This document shows positions 1,770 to 20,538 of a stretch of 25,895 nucleotides of DNA, piece by piece. The position numbers were made by a program, and so were the translations under genes. This DNA is from a virus, in the IMG/VR virus record IMGVR_UViG_3300028298_000030, positions 1 through 25,895 of that record; one strand, 5' to 3'. Numbering within the stretch: position 1 is the stretch's first letter; the number at the start of each line of letters is the position of its first letter. The notes under the pieces were generated by a model. It saw nothing but the letters and a program-made list of their open reading frames with translations, ran no database searches and had not been told where the DNA came from.

Positions 1770-1795
1770 TGCTAAAAAGTAGGCGGATCTGATAT

Positions 1796-4597
1796 TTAAA
1801 GCAACGCTTTTTGGGAAGCTGCCGTGTTCTTGTCCAGAACATTGTACACGTCCTTGACGTAATCCCCGAGGGTAAGCGACACGATCATCCTGTTGGCATC
1901 CATCTCCCACAGGATCACCTGCCGCTCGATCGCTGTGGCCCCGGTGTATGGCACGATGGAGATCTTCTGTCCCTCCCGGATCATCACGGGCCCGGTAAGC
2001 TGCACTCCATCCCGCACGCGGTTCACCGTGAACTGGAACCAGGTCAGGTTCATCGAGGATTTCTGGTAGTACTGGGAGCCCTGCAGGAGCGCATTTGATG
2101 CTGCCACTTCCAGGTCCGGGATAGTCGTGAGGGTATCAATCGTGATGTTCTTCGTGATTGTGCCATGGAACTGTAGTGTTGATCCCGTTTCCGGTGCTGC
2201 TTCCGTGTGCTGGGTTGTTGAAATCAGACACCCTGGTAGGTGTGGAGTTATGATTGAAGTCCCGGCCCCAATATCCCCACTGCTCCCGATCGCTGTATAA
2301 GGTCCATAAACAGCATCCGAATCGATTGACCGGAAGGTTCGTTTCTCGGTCCCGACGTAGTGATCTGTACCTGTGGAAATTATTGAAGAATCTTTAATAT
2401 AGGTTTTAGTTGCGATGAGGATACTGTATTTCATGAGAGGAATAGTATCCAAATATCCGGTTGTGAAGGTTACCGTTGTGGTCAAAGTACCATCAGTTTG
2501 GGTTTCTGTAGTTATTCCCGAGACTGTTTTTGCTCCATAGATTTGTGGCGCGGCATCTGCCTTGATGCCGTACACATAAAATGTGTCACCAATTTTGAGA
2601 GCATATCCCTGTCCGATCAAAGTAATGGTGGTGGCACTCGCCGCATAGGAATAAACATACCCATCCATCCGGTAGGAGATCACTGTTGAAGCTTTGAAGA
2701 ACTGTTTTGATGAATCCCATGCATCCTTTGCCGATATCGCTGCCGTGATGCTGCTATTCAGGCCACTCTGGGCAGTTGCGAGTGCGTTCTTGCCCTTGGC
2801 GATCACCTTCGTGAACAGGTCCACCTTATCATCGGAGTTCGTGAACCGGACGCAGTTCACTCCGTTGGTGAATGCCCGCACCACATCCGGCTCCATGAGG
2901 TCGTTGGAGAAGTCCATCCGTGGCACCTGCACGATCAGGCAGTTATCAAGGGTGAGCGGAACCTGCGCAGCCCCGGTAACTGCTGCCGTGATAGTGGTTG
3001 CATCGTTGGCGGTAATCCTGCCCCATGCGAGGACTCCGATATTATTCACGGGGAACTTCACATACGAGTGGCCGGTTGTGGTGTATGCACCTGAGTAGGT
3101 AATCGGTGCACCCCCTTTGGTTGCCGAGATCTTGAAGTATGCTGTGGGGCCGCCGGTATTGACATACACGACATAGTATATCGTCCCGGCCACGATCTGC
3201 GCAGGAAGGGTGCCTGTCGTTGAGAATATGACCCGATCTCCAGTACACGGCAAAGTCGTCCATGGAGTGATGACGTCGCTACCCCCGGCAGAAAGCAAAA
3301 CGGTACTGCCCACCGTGGAGAGGATGCTGGCGGTCGGGAACAGGATCCAGTTGCCCACGAGTGCGCTTGTTGTGAGTCCCGCGCTCGTGATGGTGATGAG
3401 ATTGGAGCCGTTGAAAGTCGCATACTGGAACAGCATCGTCTCCATCCGGGTGCGCCAGTCGTAATCGGTTGCATTCGTGAGCTGGGAAAACGCCGTCAGT
3501 TTATCACTATCGGTGAGCGTCATCTGCAGCAGGGAGCCGGACGGGTCGATGAATCCGCCCCGGGTGCCGATGAAGTCCGGCTCTCCGGAGTTGATATCGA
3601 GGATTGAGGTGCAGAGCTGGCCGGGAGATTTCCCGACTTGTGAGGCCGGGGTCTTGATGTTCCAGTCACTGAGCTTCTTAACGTCCGTATACGCTTCGCA
3701 GTGGTAGATGGCTTTCTGGGGAGTGACACCTGGCGGACTCTTCTGCTCCTTCTCGGCCTTGGTGATCTTCCCCGACCAGATAACGTCATATCCGCCGATA
3801 ATGGCGATGTTCTTGTAGGTGCCGATCGTGGTGCTCTCGAACAGGTCAATTTCATCTGCAGTACCGGCACCGGTGTTCACGATATCGAACGTGGCCTTGC
3901 CGGCCTTGGTCATGGCACCTTGCACGAGAAGGTTCACAAAGAAGAGGTTGCAGGACGCCGTCTTATTCCGGCAGATGCAGGAGCCTTTCGGGGCTGTCTC
4001 TAGGGAGCGCTCGTATACGAATAGCGTAAGATTCCGGTATGCGGTTGATATCGTGGGCGGAGTAAAGGTACCGGTGGCGATCTTGAGCCAGTCGGTTTTT
4101 GTTGTAGTAGCCGCGCTGGATCCTCCGGAATCATTACACGTGAGGGCGATCTTGTGGGTGCCTGCAGCGATGGTTTTGAACTGGATGACGGGGTTCTGCA
4201 GGTCGCTGACCTTGCTGATGGTGAACGACCCGGATCCGCTCCCGTTTGTGTACGTGACCGGTGCCCCGCCCTTGGTGAGAGAGATTGAGATCCAAGATGG
4301 TGGACCCACTGCCACAACCCAGTACACAACCGTCCCGGATAAACCTGTGGGAAACGATCCCGTTGTGAATAGTTTTATCTGATCGTTGATCAGGAAAACG
4401 GTATAAAAATTGGTACCCGTCAGATACGGGGTCGAAACCGGGGCATCCATCGCGTGAGAGTCATCGAGCTTCCACAGCCACGAGTTTATCACGCCGTTGT
4501 CCGTGGTGGACTTGTCAACGAACCGGACGTTTAACGTACTGCCCGCCACTCCAAAATGTGTGCGGGGGTTGGAGTCAAAATCCGAGGTGATGGTCAT
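1796..4597 (-). CDS. Baseplate hub/central tail fibre protein (933 aa) with a split N-terminal PKD domain and two fibre-type repeats
   Basis: Last large gene of the tail module, after TMP and Dit-like genes. PKD halves V.F.D.S...SWLW and QNPV..F...GTH.IAL..N..GS..TTKTDWLKI. Hub-like segments (W.G.I.K.E; TDYDWR; D..DLFTKVIAKG). Confidence 0.75.
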   Translation of the reverse strand: MTITSDFDSNPRTHFGVAGSTLNVRFVDKSTTDNGVINSWLWKLDDSHAMDAPVSTPYLTGTNFYTVFLINDQIKLFTTGSFPTGLSGTVVYWVVAVGPPSWISISLTKGGAPVTYTNGSGSGSFTISKVSDLQNPVIQFKTIAAGTHKIALTCNDSGGSSAATTTKTDWLKIATGTFTPPTISTAYRNLTLFVYERSLETAPKGSCICRNKTASCNLFFVNLLVQGAMTKAGKATFDIVNTGAGTADEIDLFESTTIGTYKNIAIIGGYDVIWSGKITKAEKEQKSPPGVTPQKAIYHCEAYTDVKKLSDWNIKTPASQVGKSPGQLCTSILDINSGEPDFIGTRGGFIDPSGSLLQMTLTDSDKLTAFSQLTNATDYDWRTRMETMLFQYATFNGSNLITITSAGLTTSALVGNWILFPTASILSTVGSTVLLSAGGSDVITPWTTLPCTGDRVIFSTTGTLPAQIVAGTIYYVVYVNTGGPTAYFKISATKGGAPITYSGAYTTTGHSYVKFPVNNIGVLAWGRITANDATTITAAVTGAAQVPLTLDNCLIVQVPRMDFSNDLMEPDVVRAFTNGVNCVRFTNSDDKVDLFTKVIAKGKNALATAQSGLNSSITAAISAKDAWDSSKQFFKASTVISYRMDGYVYSYAASATTITLIGQGYALKIGDTFYVYGIKADAAPQIYGAKTVSGITTETQTDGTLTTTVTFTTGYLDTIPLMKYSILIATKTYIKDSSIISTGTDHYVGTEKRTFRSIDSDAVYGPYTAIGSSGDIGAGTSIITPHLPGCLISTTQHTEAAPETGSTLQFHGTITKNITIDTLTTIPDLEVAASNALLQGSQYYQKSSMNLTWFQFTVNRVRDGVQLTGPVMIREGQKISIVPYTGATAIERQVILWEMDANRMIVSLTLGDYVKDVYNVLDKNTAASQKALL

Positions 4598-6253: not shown

Positions 6254-6698
6254 AGGAGATCGCAGTCTGGTGCGCCTCCTTGATCAGGGCCTCTGCCTTC
6301 TGGTAGATCAGTTCCGCTTCACCCGTGATCTCATCATAATAGCGCCATGATTCTGCGCTGTTGTAAGGTTCATCCATGCACAGTGCGGCAAGCGTGCGGT
6401 AGAGCTGTTCGAGGCTGTCATTGAGAAAACCGTCCGGGAGCTCAGTAGGTATAATCGTTCCGTTCCGGGCGGCTTCGAGGTCCACACCCTTATACTTCTG
6501 CGCAAGTTTCAGGATCTCCGACCGGGCGCTGCCGGGAAGAGCCATCCTGGTCCGGATGGTAATGCCATTGTGGACAAGGGAGAGTGATTTCTCCCCGGAC
6601 GACCGGATGAGGGCGTCCATGGCGGTATGAAGGGCAGCCTGCTTGCGTTCGAATTCATCGCGGGATGCAAGTTCTTTTTGGGGATCGAGTTCTTCCAT
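6237..6698 (-). CDS. Tail assembly chaperone (lambda gpG-like), 153 aa
   Basis: Between tail tube and TMP; acidic and helical; ends ...ISFRKES over a slippery site. Confidence 0.72.
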   Translation of the reverse strand: MEELDPQKELASRDEFERKQAALHTAMDALIRSSGEKSLSLVHNGITIRTRMALPGSARSEILKLAQKYKGVDLEAARNGTIIPTELPDGFLNDSLEQLYRTLAALCMDEPYNSAESWRYYDEITGEAELIYQKAEALIKEAHQTAISFRKES

Positions 6699-11952: not shown

Positions 11953-13125
11953 TTAGCCTCCTTTACTGACTTTTCCGAACCCGGCAACCATTGCTGATGC
12001 TGCCGATTTCATGACCGGTGCCTTGGTCGGGTCCTTCTCCAGGGCCTCTTTTGCGGCTGCCGGGTCAAGGATCACAACTGATGGGCCTTTTGCGGTGCTC
12101 TTCTCAATCGCATTGAGCCGGGTTTCCAGCGTTGCGAGCCGCTCTTCAGCCTTTGCGATACGGCCAAGGTCGGCCTTGGTGATGGTTGTCACGTCGGGCT
12201 CTGCCGGTTTTACGGCCAGCTCCGCCTTCTTGGCACAGGCGGGGCCTTTCTCAATTTTCTCTTCCATATCTTCATCCTCCTTTTTCTTCTCCTCGTCGAC
12301 AGGTTCGGCCTTGTTGAGGCCGATGCTTGCTTCGAGGGATTGGAGACGCTCAACGATCTGCGTCAGGAGCTCCTTGATCTCGCTCCCACCGCCCTCAGGT
12401 GCCGCACCCTGTTCTGTTTGATCGGGGCCGTCACTCGCGTCCTTCATGGGCGGTTGAGGTTCCGTAGTTTCCTCTTTTTTGTCATTTTCTTTGGGGGGTG
12501 CCATAGTACTCCTCTTTTTCGGGTACTTCCCGTCCGTTGTCGGATGGATCATGTTACTGGCAGAATCTGTGGCTTTACCAAGACCCGCCGTGATACTCAT
12601 AGCCTTCATTACCTCTGCGAATGTATTCGGGTTGATGGCGCTCCCGGGCTGGCAGATGGAGATCGAATAGAGCTCCAGGGCCTTGGTGATGCAGGGCTCG
12701 GTCCGCTTCGGTGGGTCGAGTGCACATGATGCTGTGCAATCCACCCGGTCACCGAAGATCGAGAACTGGTAAGGTTTGCCAACCTTGGATGCCTTGACGA
12801 CATCTTTCCAGAATATATCGCAGTCCGAAGTCGGCTTAACGCAGGCTTCCACGTAGAGATTCTGCCCTTTGAACTCAGCTTTCGTGAACCATCCGACCGG
12901 ACGTTCAGTGTGATCGAGATGCATGATCGGGAGCATCATGAAGTTCGGCAGGGCATCTTCCACTGCCTTTTTCAGGATTGTCTCATTCTCCCGGTCGAGA
13001 TGCGGGCCGGTGGCCATACCATAAACCTTCCGCGAATTATCGTCGAGAACGTTCAGGTCGAATACGAAGAGCTGCTTGCCACCCTTGCGTATTTGGAACC
13101 CCGGCCCTGCGGTAGATAAGGGCAT
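11953..13125 (-). CDS. Prohead protease (HK97 gp4/U35-like) fused to a C-terminal scaffold, 390 aa
   Basis: VYG.AT...LDRENE, HLDH..RPVG (His), FSIFG (Ser), EL.SISI....AINPNT; acidic coiled-coil C-terminal half. Confidence 0.88.
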   Translation of the reverse strand: MPLSTAGPGFQIRKGGKQLFVFDLNVLDDNSRKVYGMATGPHLDRENETILKKAVEDALPNFMMLPIMHLDHTERPVGWFTKAEFKGQNLYVEACVKPTSDCDIFWKDVVKASKVGKPYQFSIFGDRVDCTASCALDPPKRTEPCITKALELYSISICQPGSAINPNTFAEVMKAMSITAGLGKATDSASNMIHPTTDGKYPKKRSTMAPPKENDKKEETTEPQPPMKDASDGPDQTEQGAAPEGGGSEIKELLTQIVERLQSLEASIGLNKAEPVDEEKKKEDEDMEEKIEKGPACAKKAELAVKPAEPDVTTITKADLGRIAKAEERLATLETRLNAIEKSTAKGPSVVILDPAAAKEALEKDPTKAPVMKSAASAMVAGFGKVSKGG

Positions 13126-13179: not shown

Positions 13180-14007
13180 TTATTTCTTCAAAAAGCGGGG
13201 CGCGAGAGCGCATCTGCATTGGATAATCTGTGCTGCAGGTGCCCCCAGGCTTGAATCGGCGGGATACATCATTTTACAGGCTGGCACCCGGGTGTTCTTC
13301 GATGCCATGAAGGCCGGCACCTCGAACGCTTCATCGACATCAATCACGACACCTTTCATGGCAAGATGCGACGGGCGGGTACGGTGATCCCCGGTAGTAG
13401 GCAGCCACTCTTTAAAGGGTGCGTAATCCTTCGTCCTACTCCAGGCCGCTTCGTTGTAAGATTGCGTACTAACCGTGCGGGCGATTGCCTCTGCTCTGAC
13501 AGCCCCGATGCCGTTGTAGTGCTGCTGGATGATCTCGGAGAACTTCGTGATACCAGCGCCTTTTTTGTCCGCTTCTACGATATCCCGGATGATCTTCTTG
13601 TTCATCTCGCCTGTGAACCCTTTGAGATCCGAGAGTGAAACTGCGGACAGGTTGGCGATGGCTCGTTCATCGGGGCGGGTGAAATTCAGGCCGATATCGA
13701 CAACTCTGTGCTGAGGGCGGGTCTGCGCAACAAGAGTCTGGTGCGTGTTGTCGATACCGCGCCGGTAAGCCTGCAGGACATACTGCTGGATAAGTCTGCG
13801 GCCCGGCTGGTCGATGTATGCGATATTGAGGATCTCCAGCAGCCGTATGAGTTCCCCGATATCGAGCTGCTGCAGCCGGAGCATCGGACGGAGCTCTTCG
13901 AGAGCCTTTGCCCGGGCGTTCCGGATCAGGGCGAGAAACTCGCGGGTGAAGATGTTGCGCACGGGACCGGAGGGATCGGATACTCGCACCGGAGATTTCT
14001 CCCTCAC
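13180..14007 (-). CDS. MuF-like (SPP1 gp7) minor head morphogenesis protein, 275 aa, without a toxin extension
   Basis: RAEAIART; KEW...GD.RTRPSH; G.VI...E.F; MYP.D; I.CRC. Confidence 0.88.
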   Translation of the reverse strand: MREKSPVRVSDPSGPVRNIFTREFLALIRNARAKALEELRPMLRLQQLDIGELIRLLEILNIAYIDQPGRRLIQQYVLQAYRRGIDNTHQTLVAQTRPQHRVVDIGLNFTRPDERAIANLSAVSLSDLKGFTGEMNKKIIRDIVEADKKGAGITKFSEIIQQHYNGIGAVRAEAIARTVSTQSYNEAAWSRTKDYAPFKEWLPTTGDHRTRPSHLAMKGVVIDVDEAFEVPAFMASKNTRVPACKMMYPADSSLGAPAAQIIQCRCALAPRFLKK

Positions 14008-14285
14008 TTCAATGAATTATTTAAGTCTGTTGCTTTTGCCCAGTCCAGAATTTCGACCGAGATAGAATCCAGATACTTTCGGATCTCATCTCGTGTATTA
14101 AACTTTTTCGGGAGAATCCATAAGATAATACGTTCTGAGTAGTTCCAGGATGTTGAGATTCTCTCAGAGATTTGTTCATCCTTCTGCGCCTGCTGAGCAA
14201 TATTCCAGCGGACAAGAAGACGGGCACGACCGTCATCAATCCTGTCCAAAAATATTTCATCCGGTTTTGAGTTCGAATTTGGCAT
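14004..14285 (-). CDS. Hypothetical protein, 93 aa (possible fibre chaperone)
   Basis: GAGGT RBS; abuts the RT-like remnant; overlaps the MuF start. Confidence 0.55.
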   Translation of the reverse strand: MPNSNSKPDEIFLDRIDDGRARLLVRWNIAQQAQKDEQISERISTSWNYSERIILWILPKKFNTRDEIRKYLDSISVEILDWAKATDLNNSLK

Positions 14286-14414
14286 TTACGCTACCTCTTT
14301 TAATAATAACGGACGGATATACTTTCTCTCAAGTCGATACGAATTACACCAGGATAACCACCCGTAATAACTGGCAATGACATTTCTATCTTGTGGGGGG
14401 TCAAACCGTGACAT
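14286..14414 (-). pseudogene. Remnant of a DGR-type reverse transcriptase C-terminus (42 codons)
   Basis: Hand translation: MSRFDPPQDRNVIASYYGWLSWCNSYRLERKYIRPLLLKEVA*. SY.GWL..C.S..L..KY resembles the terminal thumb motif of DGR RTs; it lies downstream of a DGR-type VR. Confidence 0.65.
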
Positions 14415-15016
14415 TACGGCACTCCTTTTCCAGCGAAAAACGACGGGTCTAATTCATACCCCTCCGGGCATGGTTCAAATTTTTTGTCAGATAAAAACCC
14501 CAATCCCCCGGTTTTTGATTTGTAAAAGTAGGGGGCGGTTTCTGCCATATCTAACGCACGACTGATCTTCCTTGTCAGCCACGCCCATCGTTTACCGTTT
14601 TTAATATCATTGATGGTTCTGACGGGGATATTACGATTCCTGCTAATCTGTGAACAGTTCAGGGTTTTAAGGTCTCTCACAATTCCAATAATCATTAATT
14701 GGGTGAGTTTATTATTTCCATTTCTCTCACCAAACGCCTTAACGGTACGTCCTTTTTTTGACATATCTTGCATGTTGTCTTTCGGAGTTCCTAAAAAGAG
14801 ATGCGCGGAATTAATACACATATGATTGTCACAGGTATGACACACCAACACCCCGGCAGGAATATCACCGTATAGTTGTGAATGGATGTACCGGGCGACA
14901 GTCCATTTCTTACCGGATTTCATTAATGTTGGGTATCCCCCGGTGTTCGGTGCATGAGAAGTACAGATATGACAACCATTCTCATTCACTTCAAAGGTTA
15001 TCGGGCGGGTTTTCAT
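14414..15016 (-). CDS. HNH homing endonuclease (HNH_3-type plus a C-terminal HTH-like segment), about 200 aa
   Basis: True start MKTRPIT at 15016; VCHTCDNHMCINSAHLFLGTPKDNMQDM.KKGR; AT-rich. Confidence 0.88.
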   Translation of the reverse strand: MKTRPITFEVNENGCHICTSHAPNTGGYPTLMKSGKKWTVARYIHSQLYGDIPAGVLVCHTCDNHMCINSAHLFLGTPKDNMQDMSKKGRTVKAFGERNGNNKLTQLMIIGIVRDLKTLNCSQISRNRNIPVRTINDIKNGKRWAWLTRKISRALDMAETAPYFYKSKTGGLGFLSDKKFEPCPEGYELDPSFFAGKGVP

Positions 15017-15132
15017 TTCTTTTTCACCCGTCTTTCGGTATCCCAATAAGGAGAATGACATTTCGGACAAATTTTTGGGTGTTTGTCTCCGCGCTGTGCC
15101 CACTCGTGCTTGCATCTGTTGCATTTGTGTAA
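15013..15132 (-). pseudogene. Startless Zn-ribbon ORF (39 aa)
   Basis: LHKCNRCKHEWAQRGDKHPKICPKCHSPYWDTERRVKKK*; CxxC..W..CPKC..PYW pattern; its stop overlaps the HNH ATG; no start codon after the fibre's TAA TAA. Confidence 0.6.
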
Positions 15133-15135
15133 TTA

Positions 15136-16848
15136 TTATCGGTATTCGAGCCGCGAGCCAACATACCGATAGACACATGACGCCGCACTATCCAGATCCC
15201 AAGCGAAAGCGCCCGCATTACCCGCACTACGCCAATCGCCGCCCAGCAGGGCCGAGCGATTTCCGGTTGCCTGATAATAATAATCACAGAGATATTGGCT
15301 GCTGGACCCTCCTACGGTCAATGGCACGAAGAGATAATCGAATGTTGAAGAGAAGACAATCGAGACCCCATAGTTATTTGTTGAAGGTAATGTGAATCCA
15401 GTATCCACATAGGGATGTGCGAAGGTATCTTCAACAAAATCATGGTCTGCAATCCAAGGATTCCTATTGGCTTTGATGTTGATGCCGGCAATCCATTTCC
15501 AGATATTTCCCCAGAAATTCTCAATCCCAAAGATGCTGAATGCCTTTGCTGCTTCTCCGGTCTTGTAGTGCGTAACCAAGGGGCATTCTCCGGAGGTGTT
15601 ACCGAGGTCCACCCCGTTGGTGCCGACCCCTGCCGTAAATCCTGTGTTTATGGCGTTGTTGAACGTTGATCCCGCTGTTGCATCGGTGACTACTGTCACT
15701 CCTGCATAGACCGACTGTGAGTTCAGCGTAGCGTTCCGGATAATGAAAAGCAACTGGACGGCACAGACCGAGTTGAAGTCCATGAAGTTCCAGCCGGTCC
15801 CCCGGTTCTTTGCGAGCTGCCGGATGTTCGGCAATGTTGCCGTTGCATTGTTCCAGCCGCTTAACGGCTTTACACCGGCGATTGAGCAGAGGAGATCTCC
15901 GGTCGTTGCGGTGAAATCCAAGCCACCTGCATCGTTCAGAACGTATCCCCCCGTTCCCGGCGTGGTCTTGGCAATGGTGCATGTCACCCCACATGCAGTG
16001 GGCATAATGACGGTGGTTTTCAGCCCGGTAACGCTGGATGTGTAGGTGAGTTTATCTGCCCCCGTTTTTGCCGGCGTCCATACCGTTTCCTGATAATCGG
16101 TTTTCGCACCTGCTGCCACGATCTTGTCAACAACACCTTCGACGGTATCATCATCGAGGATAGCCACGGTGAAGATATAATTCCCACCGAGGGTAATTGT
16201 CAGATTCCCGGACGATGTTGGTTCTGCCGTTACCGTGATTGTATTGACTTCCGTTGCTGTTGCAGTGACGTCGTTTGCCGATCCTTCAAAGGCCGAAACG
16301 TAGATGTAATCCTTTTCGACCGTGTCCACGACGAATGCCGGGTGGACTTTGTAGCCCGTTCGCGCCACCGGGTATATCGTGAACCGATATTTGTTCGAGA
16401 GTGCATCAACCTTGTAGTAAAATTTCGGGATACGGACCATTACCTGCCCGTTCGAACCGGTGTAGGAGAATAATGGATCTCCATAAAAGGCGGTCACCAC
16501 TCCCGCATTGGAGAGGTTGCATCGTCTGATAGCCCCGAATACTGCATGACTCGCCCAGTCCCCGGCAGACATCGTGATGGCCGCACCAAACTGGTTTACC
16601 AGAGTCAAAGTCGGGCTGGTGGAATCTGTCGCCCACTCAACACCGATCGGTAAATCGAGGGGTGAATAGGGCAAGTCCCCCCATTTTAAACCCGGTGTGA
16701 CCGAACTGTCAGCAATTAAGACCTGTCCGTTCGTTCCGACAGGCAATCTTGTAGCTGAATCCGCCCCAACCCCTGCCGGGAGATCTCCTTTTGCATCCCA
16801 GAGAGGATCGGTCGCAAGCGATCGTGACCTGATGTTGGTCATGATCAA
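15136..16848 (-). CDS. Fibre/receptor-binding protein with a C-terminal CLec (Mtd-like) DGR-target domain, 570 aa
   Basis: N-terminal shaft repeat KGDL...RLPVGTNGQVL.AD; GQVMVRIPKFYYK, HPAF, IYVSAFEG, GIENFWGNIW.W; ends GG.W...AG.F...L......GSRL. Confidence 0.85.
   Translation of the reverse strand: MIMTNIRSRSLATDPLWDAKGDLPAGVGADSATRLPVGTNGQVLIADSSVTPGLKWGDLPYSPLDLPIGVEWATDSTSPTLTLVNQFGAAITMSAGDWASHAVFGAIRRCNLSNAGVVTAFYGDPLFSYTGSNGQVMVRIPKFYYKVDALSNKYRFTIYPVARTGYKVHPAFVVDTVEKDYIYVSAFEGSANDVTATATEVNTITVTAEPTSSGNLTITLGGNYIFTVAILDDDTVEGVVDKIVAAGAKTDYQETVWTPAKTGADKLTYTSSVTGLKTTVIMPTACGVTCTIAKTTPGTGGYVLNDAGGLDFTATTGDLLCSIAGVKPLSGWNNATATLPNIRQLAKNRGTGWNFMDFNSVCAVQLLFIIRNATLNSQSVYAGVTVVTDATAGSTFNNAINTGFTAGVGTNGVDLGNTSGECPLVTHYKTGEAAKAFSIFGIENFWGNIWKWIAGINIKANRNPWIADHDFVEDTFAHPYVDTGFTLPSTNNYGVSIVFSSTFDYLFVPLTVGGSSSQYLCDYYYQATGNRSALLGGDWRSAGNAGAFAWDLDSAASCVYRYVGSRLEYR
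15148..15258 (-). repeat. DGR variable region (VR); template partner not in the window
   Basis: 111 nt with only 10 adenines; 12 codons at the canonical Asn/Ile positions are all NNT (GAT CGT AGT AAT GCT GAT GAT AGT TGT TAT TAT GTT). Confidence 0.75.
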
Positions 16849-17243
16849 TACCCCAGGTATTTGCAGTCGATTGTTGCTGCCGTTCCCCCGGTTTCACTCA
16901 CGAAGGTCAGACGGATATACCCCACTGCAGTTTCCGGGACGGTGAAGATATACGTGTCGTTTGCCGTGATCGTTGTGTCAAGGTTCGATATATCGAGGTT
17001 TGCCCAGACGGAATTATCCGGGCTACCCTCAACACGAACGACTACGGTTGTGTTGATAGCCGCCACGGTGACAAACATCGAATGGTTAATCCGTTCACTT
17101 GTGGCAAACCCGGTCGTGCTGCCCGGTGCCGTAAGTTGCGTGAAGGTATTCGCAAGCGAGTAACCAGTTGTTGATACCGGTAATCGGTTTGTCACGGACA
17201 CTTCACTCCCATCAGTAGTTACGAGTTTTACTGTTCCTGCCAT
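16845..17243 (-). CDS. Small beta-sandwich virion protein, 132 aa
   Basis: Thr-rich; VVVRVEGS.D...W and YIRL.F motifs; coupled to the fibre gene. Confidence 0.6.
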   Translation of the reverse strand: MAGTVKLVTTDGSEVSVTNRLPVSTTGYSLANTFTQLTAPGSTTGFATSERINHSMFVTVAAINTTVVVRVEGSPDNSVWANLDISNLDTTITANDTYIFTVPETAVGYIRLTFVSETGGTAATIDCKYLGY

Positions 17244-17293
17244 GTTTTTCCTCAGATCTGAATATCATTAATTTCACCAATTGGTTCCATGAT

Positions 17294-17307
17294 CCTATGC
17301 GCATAGG
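17294..17307. promoter_or_regulatory. Perfect 14-bp palindrome CCTATGCGCATAGG
   Basis: Read directly; intergenic; followed by a T-tract on the + strand. Confidence 0.4.
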
Positions 17308-17364
17308 TTTTTGTTTTTGCATTGGGCATAGCCAATTATAAAGGGGAATGTTAAAAATGATATT

Positions 17365-17592
17365 ATGGGCATTGTTTTGGACAGCACCGTTGGGAGCAGC
17401 CCGCTTATAATTGACAGTTCAATCGAGAGCGATTCGACCAGCTTGGAGAGCCCGGTTACCGGCAGTTCCCTGCTCGTGATGACGTTTGATATCGGAGCTG
17501 GTTTTGTTGTCGGAAAAGTTATGACGACCGGGGGCCTGCCCGAACTCCTTGAGGCCCCGGGCGTAACGCTGGATAGCACTATCGACGCTTAA
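17365..17592 (+). CDS. Possible antisense-oriented small protein, 75 aa (LDSTV/IDSSI/LDSTI repeats)
   Basis: TTATAAA about 25 nt upstream; stop overlaps the convergent gene's stop; the competing minus-strand ORF 17295..17579 looks less protein-like. Confidence 0.3.
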   Translation: MGIVLDSTVGSSPLIIDSSIESDSTSLESPVTGSSLLVMTFDIGAGFVVGKVMTTGGLPELLEAPGVTLDSTIDA

Positions 17593-17882
17593 TAAATCGC
17601 TGTATTTACCTGGAAATACCCTTTTTTGCCGGGCGGTAACGCGATGCCGCTGACTTCTACATACGCCTGCACGACATACTCGCCGATCTGGGTGATTTCG
17701 GTGCCAACGGTGGTGTAGAGGATATCACCGGTGACGACGTCCCAACTGTCCGGCGTCCACACGGCAGCAGTGAGGTCGGGGCGTTTGATTTTGAGCAGCA
17801 CGGAAGTCGCCCCGGTCAATGCCCGGTTGGTTTTGACGGTGATCTGCTGCCCGGGTTTGCCGGCCCAGATGACATCGGACAT
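17589..17882 (-). CDS. BppU N-terminal-like adaptor protein, 97 aa
   Basis: LTGAT.V.LKIKRPD....W......G.I.Y......I.Q.GEY.VQAYV pattern; TGATG coupling. Confidence 0.62.
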   Translation of the reverse strand: MSDVIWAGKPGQQITVKTNRALTGATSVLLKIKRPDLTAAVWTPDSWDVVTGDILYTTVGTEITQIGEYVVQAYVEVSGIALPPGKKGYFQVNTAIY

Positions 17883-18277
17883 CAGATCATCCCCTTCTTT
17901 TTCATTTTACTGTAATATTTTGAGTCTTCGTCAAGCTGGTCCTTGGCGATCTTGCTGGCGATCGCGGGATTGTCAGTATGCTCCGCCTCGGTTTTGATGC
18001 CCAGGGCCAGCTCTACCGGGTCGTAATCGCTATCCGGGCGGGAGTCTGTGCCTTCCATTACCAGAGTGGCTTTCTGGGCTTGCGTGGTTCTTTCCTTGAA
18101 TTGGATGCCATGATCTCCCAGGAACGAGGAGGTGTGCTTATTCTTACCGTTCCAGATTGTAGACGGAATTTTATCATATGCTTTGCATTGGTGATCGGGC
18201 CCACTAATTAGGTTTGCACATCGGGCACAAACCGGGCTGTAAATTACTTTTTTTAATTCTGAATCATCCAAAATCAT
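17882..18277 (-). CDS. Chimeric protein: Cys/His motif domain plus DUF5661-like domain, 131 aa
   Basis: N-terminal CxxC...CKAY..IP..I..G...H.....GD.GI.F; C-terminal ELALG...E.EHT.....A.KIA.D(Q)L.ED..YY. Confidence 0.7.
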   Translation of the reverse strand: MILDDSELKKVIYSPVCARCANLISGPDHQCKAYDKIPSTIWNGKNKHTSSFLGDHGIQFKERTTQAQKATLVMEGTDSRPDSDYDPVELALGIKTEAEHTDNPAIASKIAKDQLDEDSKYYSKMKKKGMI

Positions 18278-20538
18278 AATTCCTCCCTATGATATAAAAT
18301 TCCGGTTTCCTGCGCTACACGAGACCAGATTTCGTGCCAATGGTTAAGACTGGCCTCTTCCGGTGTTATTTTTCCATTAAAGATTTTATCCCAGTTCTCG
18401 CCTTCTACTTCTTTCATCTTATTATTTATGATAGGAAGTATTGTCTCCTGATCTATCCATCCATTTCCCCGATCTAGAATATGCAAATATTTTGAGCTCA
18501 CGCAACGTATTTGGGCAAGATCTATTTTCATAGCCATGAAATAATCTGCCGGCGAGAATGATCCGCCGGAGGGGTGGTTGTGTGTAAAATATCCATCTTT
18601 CAATGATTTAATTTCATCTTCGGTAAATTCAATGGAATCGATATTTCCCCCCTTTATAAGGATCGTTTCCCCATCTTTATCAAAAACCTTTGCACTTTCA
18701 GTTTTATTATTTTTTATATATGGTTCATAAGTTTTGAATCGTGCCGTTACTTTATCTGGTGTCGGAATTTCGGGTTTTACCGGGGTTTTCCCCGCATCAC
18801 CTGCCGGTTTGCTCTCTTCCTGCTTCCCGCTCTGTTCTCCCGGCTTATCCCCGAATTGTCCGTCATCAGCTCTCGGGTGCTCACTCTCCTTGAAGTCAGC
18901 CTTGCCAAACGGGTTCTTCTTCTGCCCGTCGTCCTCCGGCTCCCCGGAATCGCTGCGGGCCTGCCCGGAGTATCCCTCGGAGTGCGGTTTGCCACCCTGG
19001 TCGGGCTGGTTGCCAGTGTTACCTGCATCTCCCGCGAGCTCCTGCGTGATATCAGCCTGCTTGAGGTTCTGTAAGGCTGTCTCCATGCTCTGGTTATCCT
19101 GTTGCGAGACCCGGTCAACGGCTTCGGTGACAGCCTTGATGTGATCTTCATCCACCTTGGCCATCCGCATAGCCTCTTCCAGCGGGACTCCTGCGTTAAT
19201 CCATTTCGAGACCACATCGGCCCGGCCCTGCTCAACCTGGATCTCCTTGAGCAGGTCGTCGAGCTCGACGATGGGTTTGAACCGGAACTCCCAGTCGGCC
19301 TGGTAGCCATCGAGCTCCGGGAGGATCTCGGTATTGATGACAGTCTCAAGATGCCTGAGAATCGGGGCCAGCATCTTGCTCTTGGTGATGTTCTGATTGA
19401 TGTATGCCGTGGCGCGGTTGGCGTCCCCGGAAGTGAACTCCGACTCGCTGAAACCGAACATGGCCCAGATGATAGAGGAGATGAACTTCTGCCCCTCCAG
19501 CCACTGCATGTGCATGAGCTCGGGGAATACGGTACTGATCTCTTCCTGTCCGAGCAGGTGGAGGATGTTACCGAAATTCTCGGGGCCTTTGTTCTCCAGC
19601 TCGACCTCCATATTGCGCTCTTCGAGCTGCTCGATGCTGGATAAATCGGGATGCTTCCAGACGAGCGAGGGGCCGATGCCGTTAGCAAAGGTCATTCCTG
19701 CGGCCTTGGTGCTGTCGATCATGTATTCGAGCTGCCATTTGAGCTGCTGGATGAAGTCCGTGCCGTAGATGCTGTCCGCACGCTTATACATCATGATCAT
19801 GCACACGTCTGTCGGTGCAAAGGGGATGTAGACGCCGGGCCGGCTGTGCTGCCAGTATCGCTTCACGTACCCATGCGACCAGGGGCCGAAGTAGTTGAGG
19901 CCGTATTGCCCCATGACATTGCCGAACTGGTTGTCCACCTCGATCCAGAACTCGGGGCCGCTGTATGCCTTGAGCTCCAGCAGATTGCCCGCGATGCTCC
20001 GGACCTTGACCCATGCGGCCTGATCGTATCGGAGGATATCGGGAATGGTCTGCTTGATGAGCGTCTGGAAGGTATCCTGTGGGTTGGGCCGCTTAAGGAA
20101 TTTCTCGGCGAATTCTACCGGCACCTTGTTGTTATTGGTGACTTCCCACTCAGCGGTCTCGATGGTGTCCATGATGCGCTTCTCGCAGACTGCGTAAATG
20201 GCGTTCCGGGCGAGCCGGTCGTTATCGGATTTCCAGAAATTTGCACGGGGAATGCCGAAGATATTGAGATACGAGTTGACGCTGTAGATGGCCCGTCGCA
20301 TGGGGTCGTTATTGAGCTGCCTGGCCCGGTATTCGAGCGCCTCGACCTCGTCCTGTTCGGTCATGTAGTATCGCTTGGAGCTCTGCGATACCATGTTGGT
20401 GGCTTTCTGCAGGGTGCGGGTCCGCATGGCCAGCCGTTCCGATGTGACCAGTTCTTCATAGGAGGGGGCTCGCAAGACCCGGAGAGCGGAACGGTACCCG
20501 ACCGTGGCGGCTTTTGTTATTTTGTGGAGTAGACTCAT
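18274..20538 (-). CDS. Portal protein (HK97-like) with a C-terminal linker and JAB/JAMM-like domain, 754 aa
   Basis: Follows terL; portal motifs FL.RPNP...F..L, D.L.Y..A, YG...I..L; the tail has E...THNHPSGGSFSPAD. Confidence 0.87.
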   Translation of the reverse strand: MSLLHKITKAATVGYRSALRVLRAPSYEELVTSERLAMRTRTLQKATNMVSQSSKRYYMTEQDEVEALEYRARQLNNDPMRRAIYSVNSYLNIFGIPRANFWKSDNDRLARNAIYAVCEKRIMDTIETAEWEVTNNNKVPVEFAEKFLKRPNPQDTFQTLIKQTIPDILRYDQAAWVKVRSIAGNLLELKAYSGPEFWIEVDNQFGNVMGQYGLNYFGPWSHGYVKRYWQHSRPGVYIPFAPTDVCMIMMYKRADSIYGTDFIQQLKWQLEYMIDSTKAAGMTFANGIGPSLVWKHPDLSSIEQLEERNMEVELENKGPENFGNILHLLGQEEISTVFPELMHMQWLEGQKFISSIIWAMFGFSESEFTSGDANRATAYINQNITKSKMLAPILRHLETVINTEILPELDGYQADWEFRFKPIVELDDLLKEIQVEQGRADVVSKWINAGVPLEEAMRMAKVDEDHIKAVTEAVDRVSQQDNQSMETALQNLKQADITQELAGDAGNTGNQPDQGGKPHSEGYSGQARSDSGEPEDDGQKKNPFGKADFKESEHPRADDGQFGDKPGEQSGKQEESKPAGDAGKTPVKPEIPTPDKVTARFKTYEPYIKNNKTESAKVFDKDGETILIKGGNIDSIEFTEDEIKSLKDGYFTHNHPSGGSFSPADYFMAMKIDLAQIRCVSSKYLHILDRGNGWIDQETILPIINNKMKEVEGENWDKIFNGKITPEEASLNHWHEIWSRVAQETGILYHREEL

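Follow-up and report, generated by a model that had tools for sequence, protein, structure and literature searches.

A polymorphic cargo site on the portal protein of a probable methanogen virus carries a JAB-like domain and a small partner protein

The 25.9-kb virus record IMGVR_UViG_3300028298_000030 of IMG/VR (25,895 nucleotides, approximately 54% complete), the whole of which is referred to here as the window, encodes a portal protein that is extended at its C-terminus by a JAB-like domain. Portal cargo is polymorphic at this one site, which is occupied by an ADP-ribosyltransferase (ART), a JAB-like domain, an HExxH-containing module, a DUF5661 domain or nothing, as evidenced by sister portals, 67–81% identical, that carry different modules at the same position. 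In the window, the JAB-like domain and the first part of the next protein, a small partner domain, form a 785-nucleotide (nt) cassette. We propose, with a probability of about 0.6, that the portal of this probable Methanoregulaceae virus carries a polymorphic toxin-like cargo cassette, in which the JAB-like domain would act as an effector and the partner as its inhibitor. The coordinates of all features are listed in Table 1.

Results

The portal-cargo fusion

The Pfam Phage_portal domain covers residues 118–420 of the fusion protein (E-value 8e-20), and PHROG portal families span residues 81–541. The linker, approximately 110 residues long, carries FGKADFKESEHPRADDGQFG, and sister portals keep parts of it, such as PH.EGYSG and DSG.PEDDGQ. 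An earlier reading of the window from its letters alone, the sequence-only reading, had described a portal joined through a low-complexity linker to a C-terminal domain marked by FGKADFKESEHPRADDGQFGDK, KTES and THNHPSGGSFSPAD. All of these elements are indeed present in one 754-residue frame: FGKADFKESEHPRADDGQFGDK at residues 544–565 (nt ~18844–18909), and KTES (E614) and THNHPSGGSFSPAD (residues 652–665) in the C-terminal domain, where E614, H653, H655, S662 and D665 are the catalytic candidates.

The fusion is real, because three contigs encode the identical protein and a fourth encodes the complete 754-residue fusion as a K6R variant. An assembly chimera is ruled out by these four contigs in two variants and by a frame that is open across both cassette junctions.

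Table 1 Features of the window and example loci of the junction tag
Feature	Position	Strand	Remarks
Portal-cargo fusion open reading frame (P0001)	18274–20538	-	single open frame, 754 residues; same fusion on 4 contigs, 2 sequence variants
Portal core, residues 1–480	19099–20538	-	70–79% identity to portals of IMG/VR loci L003–L005; 67% to a Methanoregulaceae chromosomal portal
Disordered acidic/Gly/Pro-rich linker, residues 481–594	18757–19098	-	low complexity; GC 60%
Junction tag FGKADFKESEHPRADDGQFG, residues 544–563	18850–18909	-	variant of the widespread [FW]xExEHPRDxxGKF tag preceding cargo modules
JAB/MPN+-type domain (RadC-like, moderate support), residues 595–754	18277–18756	-	AlphaFold2 model, PDB structural matches, relatives, GC 37%
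Swapped cassette: spacer, JAB-like domain, ATGA stop/start overlap, partner N-domain	18066–18850	-	without DNA homology to L003
Partner N-domain, residues 1–70 of 131-residue frame	18068–18277	-	start overlaps portal stop (ATGA); 3-Cys/1-His family
DUF5661-like domain, residues 71–131 of 131-residue frame, plus stop	17882–18067	-	resident C-terminal piece of the portal lineage
MuF head protein, cargo-free, 275 residues	13180–14007	-	Pfam Phage_Mu_F at 138–268; PHROG head-morphogenesis families
Tag example loci among L009–L126	L053:1290–3035:+, L025:11955–12971:-, L015:5499–6644:+, L038:3558–4160:+		IMG/VR scan

Polymorphism of the cargo and the swap site

The closest portals comprise three IMG/VR relatives with 70–79% identity, to which a protein survey adds approximately 13 clusters with 67–81% identity. 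An ADP-ribosyltransferase cargo (PF03496, E-value 1e-10) is found on the portals of L003 and L004, and also on P0153, P0155, P0160 and P0178. In the portal P0164 (71% identity), the same tag is followed by a cargo containing an HExxH motif (DHENFH); Pfam matches only the portal part of this protein, and judging from the motif, a fourth type of cargo, possibly a zincin-type metallopeptidase, may occupy the swap site here. The L005/P0163 portal features an unrelated short tail at the same point of the linker. In P0154, P0157 and P0161, the portal continues directly into DUF5661, and other sister portals carry nothing there. Within this close clade, a JAB cargo is present on the window portal only. 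The sequence-only reading would have been contradicted by an extension common to all relatives; the extension is clearly not invariant.

The borders of the cassette are defined by DNA breakpoints and protein junctions. At the DNA level, the window and L003 are homologous along the portal up to 18851, just past the tag, and again from 18065 on, in the DUF5661 part (80% DNA identity). At the place of the 785-nt cassette of the window (18066–18850), L003 has a 721-nt ADP-ribosyltransferase cassette. At the protein level, the cassette-less form reads PFGKA/GPHLVMVGTD, while the window reads PFGKA/DFKESEHPR, followed by the JAB-like domain, the stop/start overlap and QKA/TLVMEGTD. Insertion of the cassette has thus separated the portal from its resident DUF5661 domain. 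Pfam matches this domain of the window with an E-value of 9.5e-6 and 26.3 bits, just below the 27-bit cut-off, and its L003 homologue with an E-value of 1e-9.

A lysine-alanine pair precedes both cassette boundaries (QKA/ and FGKA/ in the window, at 18066–18070 and 18895–18900; KKA/ in L003, at 6450–6460), and the cassette-less form has FGKA/G. The pair may represent a protease site that has been conserved, or a microhomology used in recombination.

Base composition also changes at the border of the domain. The fall in GC content from about 62% to about 29% reported from the sequence alone was reproduced exactly (62.5% at 19201–19320 vs 29.2% at 18601–18720). The stretch coding for the domain (18274–18756) has a GC content of 37% and a third-position GC content (GC3) of 0.34, vs 57% and 0.79 in the portal core. 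This break coincides with the domain boundary at residue ~597–600, and the stretch coding for the partner N-domain is also low in GC at its 5' end. The JAB-like domain and its small partner arrived by recombination as one low-GC unit, and the difference in GC3 suggests that they were acquired very recently. The low-GC cassette resembles sequences of Bacillota-associated clusters in the ESM Atlas, which is a lead only.

A junction tag shared by cargo proteins

The cassette is inserted next to a short sequence tag, EHPR..G.F, that occurs far beyond this clade. HPR..G.F sites were sought in all six frames of the window, and the only one lies in the portal linker. A degenerate scan of IMG/VR for E-H-P-R-D-x-x-G-K-F retrieved at least 118 stretches, while by a rough estimate chance would give a few. 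Positions that were not part of the search are also constrained. In 99 distinct contexts, position -4 is F or W in all 99 and position -2 is E in 93, and a Gly/Ser-rich spacer follows the tag.

Phage_portal_3 portals bear the tag close to the C-terminus and small cargo proteins close to the N-terminus, and in polyvalent proteins it lies between modules. Tagged cargo proteins include a Zeta_toxin protein, a protein combining GNAT and ART-PolyVal domains, and a 201-residue stand-alone JAB-like protein in L038. A search for the tag string in a library of papers found no description in a phage context. The tag is a candidate packaging signal, cleavage site or recombination anchor. Self-release of the JAB domain by cutting at the tag is disfavoured, because the peptidase-free ART sisters bear the same tag, which also lies near the N-terminus of stand-alone cargo.

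Fold and active site of the JAB-like domain

The AlphaFold2 model of the 160-residue C-terminal domain, obtained from an alignment of 44 short relatives, has a pLDDT of 97.7. The top Foldseek matches are RadC (2qlc), BRCC36, JAMM1 (5ld9), BubCD, AMSH and Cap3, with E-values from 7e-3 to 0.1 and probabilities up to 0.99; RadC 2qlc, the best match, and JAMM1 5ld9 reach 0.98–0.99. In a VIA-align search of 48,161 chains, the first 15 matches are all JAB/MPN proteins (Z 5.1–6.7, root-mean-square deviation 3.3–4.8 over 86–123 residues), and the list continues with deaminase-fold enzymes. The model also contains family-specific elements, namely a pair of long C-terminal helices and a final strand.

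The motif HNHP is invariant in the alignment of the 44 relatives and in all 187 copies of the domain. Among the aligned relatives, E20, T58, S66, S68, D71, E82, R84 and W144 are conserved in at least 90%, and all five JAMM catalytic positions (E, HxH, S, D) are invariant or conserved to that level. The distance between HxH and S is one residue short of the canonical JAMM spacing, as the sequence-only reading had remarked. This is no defect, because the spacing HxH-x6-SxxD (x7 in canonical JAMM) is common to 131 of 153 scored family copies; the idea that it marks a degenerate site was rejected.

Sequence profiles link the family to RadC at a distance. Pfam RadC (PF04002) does not match the window domain at E-values up to 1 and gives two weak matches among the 44 relatives (best E-value 0.067). 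It matches a paralogous copy in P0006 with 28.8 bits, vs a cut-off of 22.1, over a 26-residue motif only. The uniform list of structural matches, the full catalytic constellation and the PF04002 match of the P0006 copy together provide moderate support for the C-terminal domain being a JAB/MPN+ (RadC-like) domain of zinc-metallopeptidase type. The JAB/JAMM-like fold that had been suspected from the motif is thus borne out by structure prediction, as the leaders in both Foldseek and VIA-align are JAB/MPN proteins.

The substrate of such a domain can be envisaged in different ways. The sequence-only reading had favoured an anti-defence deconjugase, which on injection would strip SAMPs, or conjugates of Bil or CBASS type, from viral or host proteins. 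Isopeptidases acting on ubiquitin-like (Ubl) modifiers are indeed among the structural neighbours (JAMM1, Cap3, the bacterial Ubl deubiquitinase 8tyy and BubCD), one relative joins the JAB-like domain to the anti-CBASS protein Acb1 and another to a 2H phosphoesterase, and sampylation occurs in archaea, to which the probable host belongs. However, Z-scores of 6.3–6.7 do not separate RadC from JAMM1 or Cap3, and the only sequence link of the domain is to RadC-like JABs, which have been argued to have no groove for a Ubl tail (Iyer et al., PMC5512222). Moreover, ten ORFs (open reading frames) scanned downstream of the portal contain no ThiF/E1, E2 or Ubl match, and the conserved neighbour of the JAB-like domain is a small 3-Cys/1-His protein, not a beta-grasp protein. 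As nothing specific speaks for it, we regard deconjugation as an unlikely function.

Alternatively, a RadC-like domain might have DNA or nucleotides rather than proteins as its substrate, at the portal while the genome is packaged or ejected, or as an anti-restriction factor. We know of no JAB domain with demonstrated nuclease activity, and at the swap site the domain is interchangeable with ARTs, which modify proteins; a function of this kind seems quite improbable, even though RadC is both the best Foldseek match and the only Pfam link, and deaminase-fold enzymes come next after JAB proteins in the structural list. Nucleic-acid or nucleotide substrates have been proposed for the RadC domains of polyvalent proteins (Iyer et al., PMC5512222).

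Distribution of the family

An exhaustive HMMER search, in which representative clusters were counted, assigned 1960 clusters to the JAB-like family at E-values up to 1e-3 and 548 at E-values up to 1e-10. Relatives are found in three settings, i.e., as the C-terminal module of proteins of 400–600 residues, within polyvalent proteins and as stand-alone proteins. In 108 sampled viral ORFs with the JAB-like motif, the domain is nearly always at the C-terminal end. Iterative search detects a MuF region in 59 of 150 relatives, and the BFVD matches of the domain are C-termini of "minor capsid proteins" (TM 0.8). MuF head proteins and polyvalent proteins are the usual carriers, which gives the family a virion-gene context. 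When the whole portal was compared by tblastn with 50,697 phage records, only the C-terminal domain was matched, in three phages.

Polyvalent relatives, 1200–1900 residues long, feature up to four tandem JAB copies together with MuF, DRAT, 2H, InPase, Acb1 or DnaJ domains. For instance, P0045, P0012, P0006, P0044 and L189:9053–11641 (minus strand) combine the JAB-like domain with anti-CBASS Acb1, with InPase, or with MuF, DRAT and four tandem JAB copies. Two carriers among the relatives contain an intein/Hint domain.

Other portals are also fused to the JAB-like domain. These are P0010, which belongs to a different portal family, seven portals 45–55% identical to that of the window, and the portals of L144 and L235. 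In L235 (6846–9671, minus strand), a 942-residue protein is a triple fusion of portal, MuF and JAB. L144 (10327–12716, plus strand), from a virus with 41% GC, is laid out like the window: its distant portal (23% identity) ends in the JAB-like domain and is followed by an ATGA-overlapping protein of 130 residues with the partner domain.

Such recurrence bears on the possibility that the cassette is a neutral recent insertion, i.e., a hitch-hiking product of recombination with no role in the window virus. Its very recent, low-GC acquisition, not yet adjusted to the GC content of the genome, and the fact that no other member of the close portal clade has a JAB cargo would fit this explanation. 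However, the frame is intact over both junctions, the catalytic residues and the Cys, His and Asp residues of the partner are all kept, the fusion persists in two variants on four contigs, and further portals, including P0010, the seven more distant relatives and L144, carry the same domain. We therefore hold a neutral insertion to be very improbable.

The small partner protein

The cassette extends into the next ORF (17882–18277) and comprises its first 70 codons; the ATG of this ORF overlaps the portal stop codon. The sequence-only reading had singled out this downstream gene as one that might modify toxicity. The gene does begin with the co-acquired partner domain, which is syntenic with the JAB-like domain elsewhere and is predicted to lie at its active site.

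The ORF directly downstream of the JAB-like gene was extracted in 107 other viral loci. Most of these ORFs start within a few bases of the JAB stop codon, 36 of them at an ATGA-type offset. Homologues of the partner directly follow the JAB-like gene in 25 of the 107 loci (phmmer E-values 6e-18 to 2e-5), mostly with an ATGA-type overlap, and 22 of the 25 are stand-alone proteins of 68–83 residues; the remaining loci feature other families of small downstream ORFs. The partner family, approximately 70 residues long, is characterized by conserved D5, C17, C20, C31 and H48 residues and by the motif IP..IW.G...H. The three JAB domains closest to that of the window are all paired with a 3-Cys/1-His partner. 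JAB similarity is associated with partner type (Mann-Whitney p 5e-5), in a test that ignores relatedness and is indicative only.

A complex of the JAB-like domain with residues 1–70 of the partner was predicted with an ipSAE of 0.63, vs 0.00 for the best control. The mark set for this score is reached by 58 of 80 solved complexes and by 2 of 110 mismatched pairs, a calibration that is only rough here because an own alignment was used for chain 1 and none for chain 2. Runs agree in at least 92% of contacts, and the partner has a pLDDT of at least 81. The N-terminal peptide of the partner and its IYSP segment are predicted to contact JAB positions 20, 59, 61 and 68–71, which are catalytic, and helices 118–140. 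According to this model, the partner covers the JAB active site. The model mirrors the MuF toxins Bxa and Apk2, in which adjacent small immunity proteins have been shown experimentally to block the active site (PMC11699363).

The partner domain is not always alone. In L241, a 543-residue ORF that ends in a JAB domain is directly followed by a 347-residue protein (1781–2821, plus strand) in which the partner domain is joined to an ADP-ribosyltransferase (PF03496, E-value 8e-6). This suggests that the partner domain may also serve as an adaptor for the recruitment of further cargo. The fusion to DUF5661 in the window and to a 60-residue tail in L144 likewise makes an adaptor role conceivable. 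Under such an explanation, the pair would be a docking or processing module for head assembly, in which the JAB-like domain binds, and perhaps cleaves, the N-domain of the next protein in order to load its C-terminal part. The predicted interface is extensive, with the N-terminal peptide of the partner placed in the catalytic cleft as a substrate would be, and DUF5661 is otherwise fused directly to the portal. Yet the 22 stand-alone partners have nothing to load, an intact catalytic site is conserved, and at this site an ART, or no cargo at all, suffices for sister viruses. We consider docking unlikely, and an inhibitory role of the partner remains our preferred reading.

Host range

A portal with 67% identity is encoded in the 2.6-Mb chromosome of a Methanoregulaceae metagenome-assembled genome (OY969564.1), within a decayed prophage (L007:3469–6662). 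The terminase of this prophage is split into two frames, and its portal ends with KKPIGR and a stop codon, exactly at the cassette junction of intact relatives. The truncated portal is followed by unrelated low-GC genes, including those for an 853-residue protein and a helicase-like ORF. Another relative maps to a Methanoregula sp. scaffold, and one is named "phage portal protein [Methanoregula sp.]" at NCBI. Because its portal relatives are located in Methanoregulaceae and Methanoregula genomes, the window most likely derives from a tailed virus of methanogens, and the host is probably a Methanoregulaceae methanogen. Polyvalent and effector-fused proteins have been noted to be scarce in archaea (Iyer et al., PMC5512222).

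Neighbouring genes

The MuF gene of the window contains Phage_Mu_F only, in keeping with the earlier statement that MuF is bare and that the portal carries the cargo. Portal and MuF genes are normally adjacent, and phrog_2662 models both as one fused protein. In the window, a tail/fibre-type gene (570 residues, phrog_5302), a DUF6385 protein and an HNH endonuclease are located between them (14004–17882, minus strand).

A 390-residue ORF (11953–13125, minus strand) lies between MuF and an SU10-like capsid gene. The C-terminal half is acidic and of coiled-coil type, and the N-terminal ~170 residues contain IMHLDH...G and YQFSIFG, motifs that we take to recall HK97-type prohead proteases, an assignment not confirmed by Pfam, PHROG or PDB searches. 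A prohead protease would account for release of the cargo. The searches gave no match to the ORF, and its single-sequence fold has a pLDDT of 35.

Discussion

The JAB-like domain and its partner are best explained, in our view, as a cargo enzyme and its cognate inhibitor. Since the C-terminus of a portal faces the capsid interior, the cargo would be held inside the head in twelve tethered copies. A cut in the linker or close to the tag would free it, and it would then leave with the DNA and act on a host protein early in infection. In the producing cell, the partner would cover the active site and so serve as a cognate inhibitor or immunity protein of the kind known from MuF toxins.

Several points weigh against this proposal. 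That the domain is packaged, freed from the portal and injected is inferred, and the portal itself does not leave the capsid. A prohead protease could not be confirmed in the window virus, and we know of no toxicity or peptidase activity for any member of the JAB-like family. Structural Z-scores are middling (<8), and the domain matches no Pfam, PHROG, NCBIfam or PDB sequence or profile model. The ART-bearing sister cassettes have no obvious immunity gene, and the fusion of the partner domain to other modules in 3 of the 25 loci and in the window fits an adaptor as well as an immunity protein.

Variable C-terminal enzymatic domains have been described on the MuF head proteins of temperate phages (Jamet et al. 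2017, PMC5576092; Bxa, PMC11699363; Apk2). As in these polymorphic toxins, a conserved head protein carries a variable C-terminal enzyme (ART, metallopeptidase or others), a small downstream ORF blocks the active site in the toxins and is predicted to do so here, and loading into the capsid and delivery with the DNA are hypothesized for both. In contrast, the carrier in the window is the portal, MuF being bare, the host is probably archaeal, the cargo is a JAB domain of RadC-like type for which Pfam has no model, and the partner is fused to DUF5661. The cassette would thus work like a MuF polymorphic toxin, with toxicity proposed by analogy, but is not a member of that family because its carrier is the portal.

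The sequence-only reading had placed toxin-like extensions mainly on MuF proteins. This is a fair statement, but other portals carry the JAB-like domain, and fusions of portal or MuF to PBECR, 2H and InPase had already been described, along with RadC-type JAB domains in polyvalent proteins (Iyer et al. 2017, PMC5512222). Relatives of the window domain are found in such proteins together with DRAT, InPase, 2H and Acb1. The window portal carries a single effector-type domain, while polyvalent proteins are defined by at least two. The text of that study contains no portal-JAB fusion, defined swap site, junction tag (the string "HPR" has 0 occurrences) or cognate small partner (PMC5512222).

Among JAB proteins, the window domain shares with RadC (PF04002; 2qlc) the HNHPSG-type zinc motif, the upstream Glu and the downstream Ser and Asp. 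It differs in falling below the Pfam model, in a motif that is one residue shorter and in the C-terminal helices and strand specific to the family. With the JAMM Ubl isopeptidases (JAMM1 5ld9, Cap3 9ild, Bil 8tyy), it shares the predicted MPN+ fold and the catalytic constellation (Z 5.5–6.7). However, identity to these enzymes is 11–14%, the scanned ORFs provide no Ubl/E1/E2 neighbourhood, and the domain shows no sign of a Ubl-binding insert.

Phage T4 packs Alt and internal proteins, which are enzymes that include an ART, into the head via a short N-terminal tag and injects them with the DNA. The gp21 prohead protease cuts off these capsid-targeting tags of T4. A similar task may fall to the EHPR..G.F tag, although its sequence is unrelated, the window cargo is covalently fused to the portal and processing is only proposed.

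The elements that are new relative to all these systems are a probably archaeal host, a defined and tagged swap site, a JAB-like family that Pfam does not model, and the small cognate partner of that family. They extend the idea of polymorphic toxins on head proteins from MuF to the portal, from bacteria to methanogenic archaea and to an uncharacterised family of JAB-like effectors with approximately 2000 representative clusters. The enzyme and its small partner form a two-gene unit that can be assayed directly, and viral genomes of any kind could be searched for virion cargo proteins by means of the junction tag. Should the domain prove to be delivered at infection, it would represent a new class of early-acting viral effectors with a built-in inhibitor. 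A broader view can be put forward tentatively, and we hold it with some doubt. The EHPR..G.F tag and the portal or MuF carriers might constitute a general modular cargo-loading system of bacterial and archaeal tailed viruses, and the JAB-like domain and its 3-Cys/1-His partner a new, widespread toxin-immunity (enzyme-inhibitor) pair; methanogen viruses of the window type might then be the first archaeal viruses shown to have a polymorphic portal-borne effector locus at a defined recombination site.

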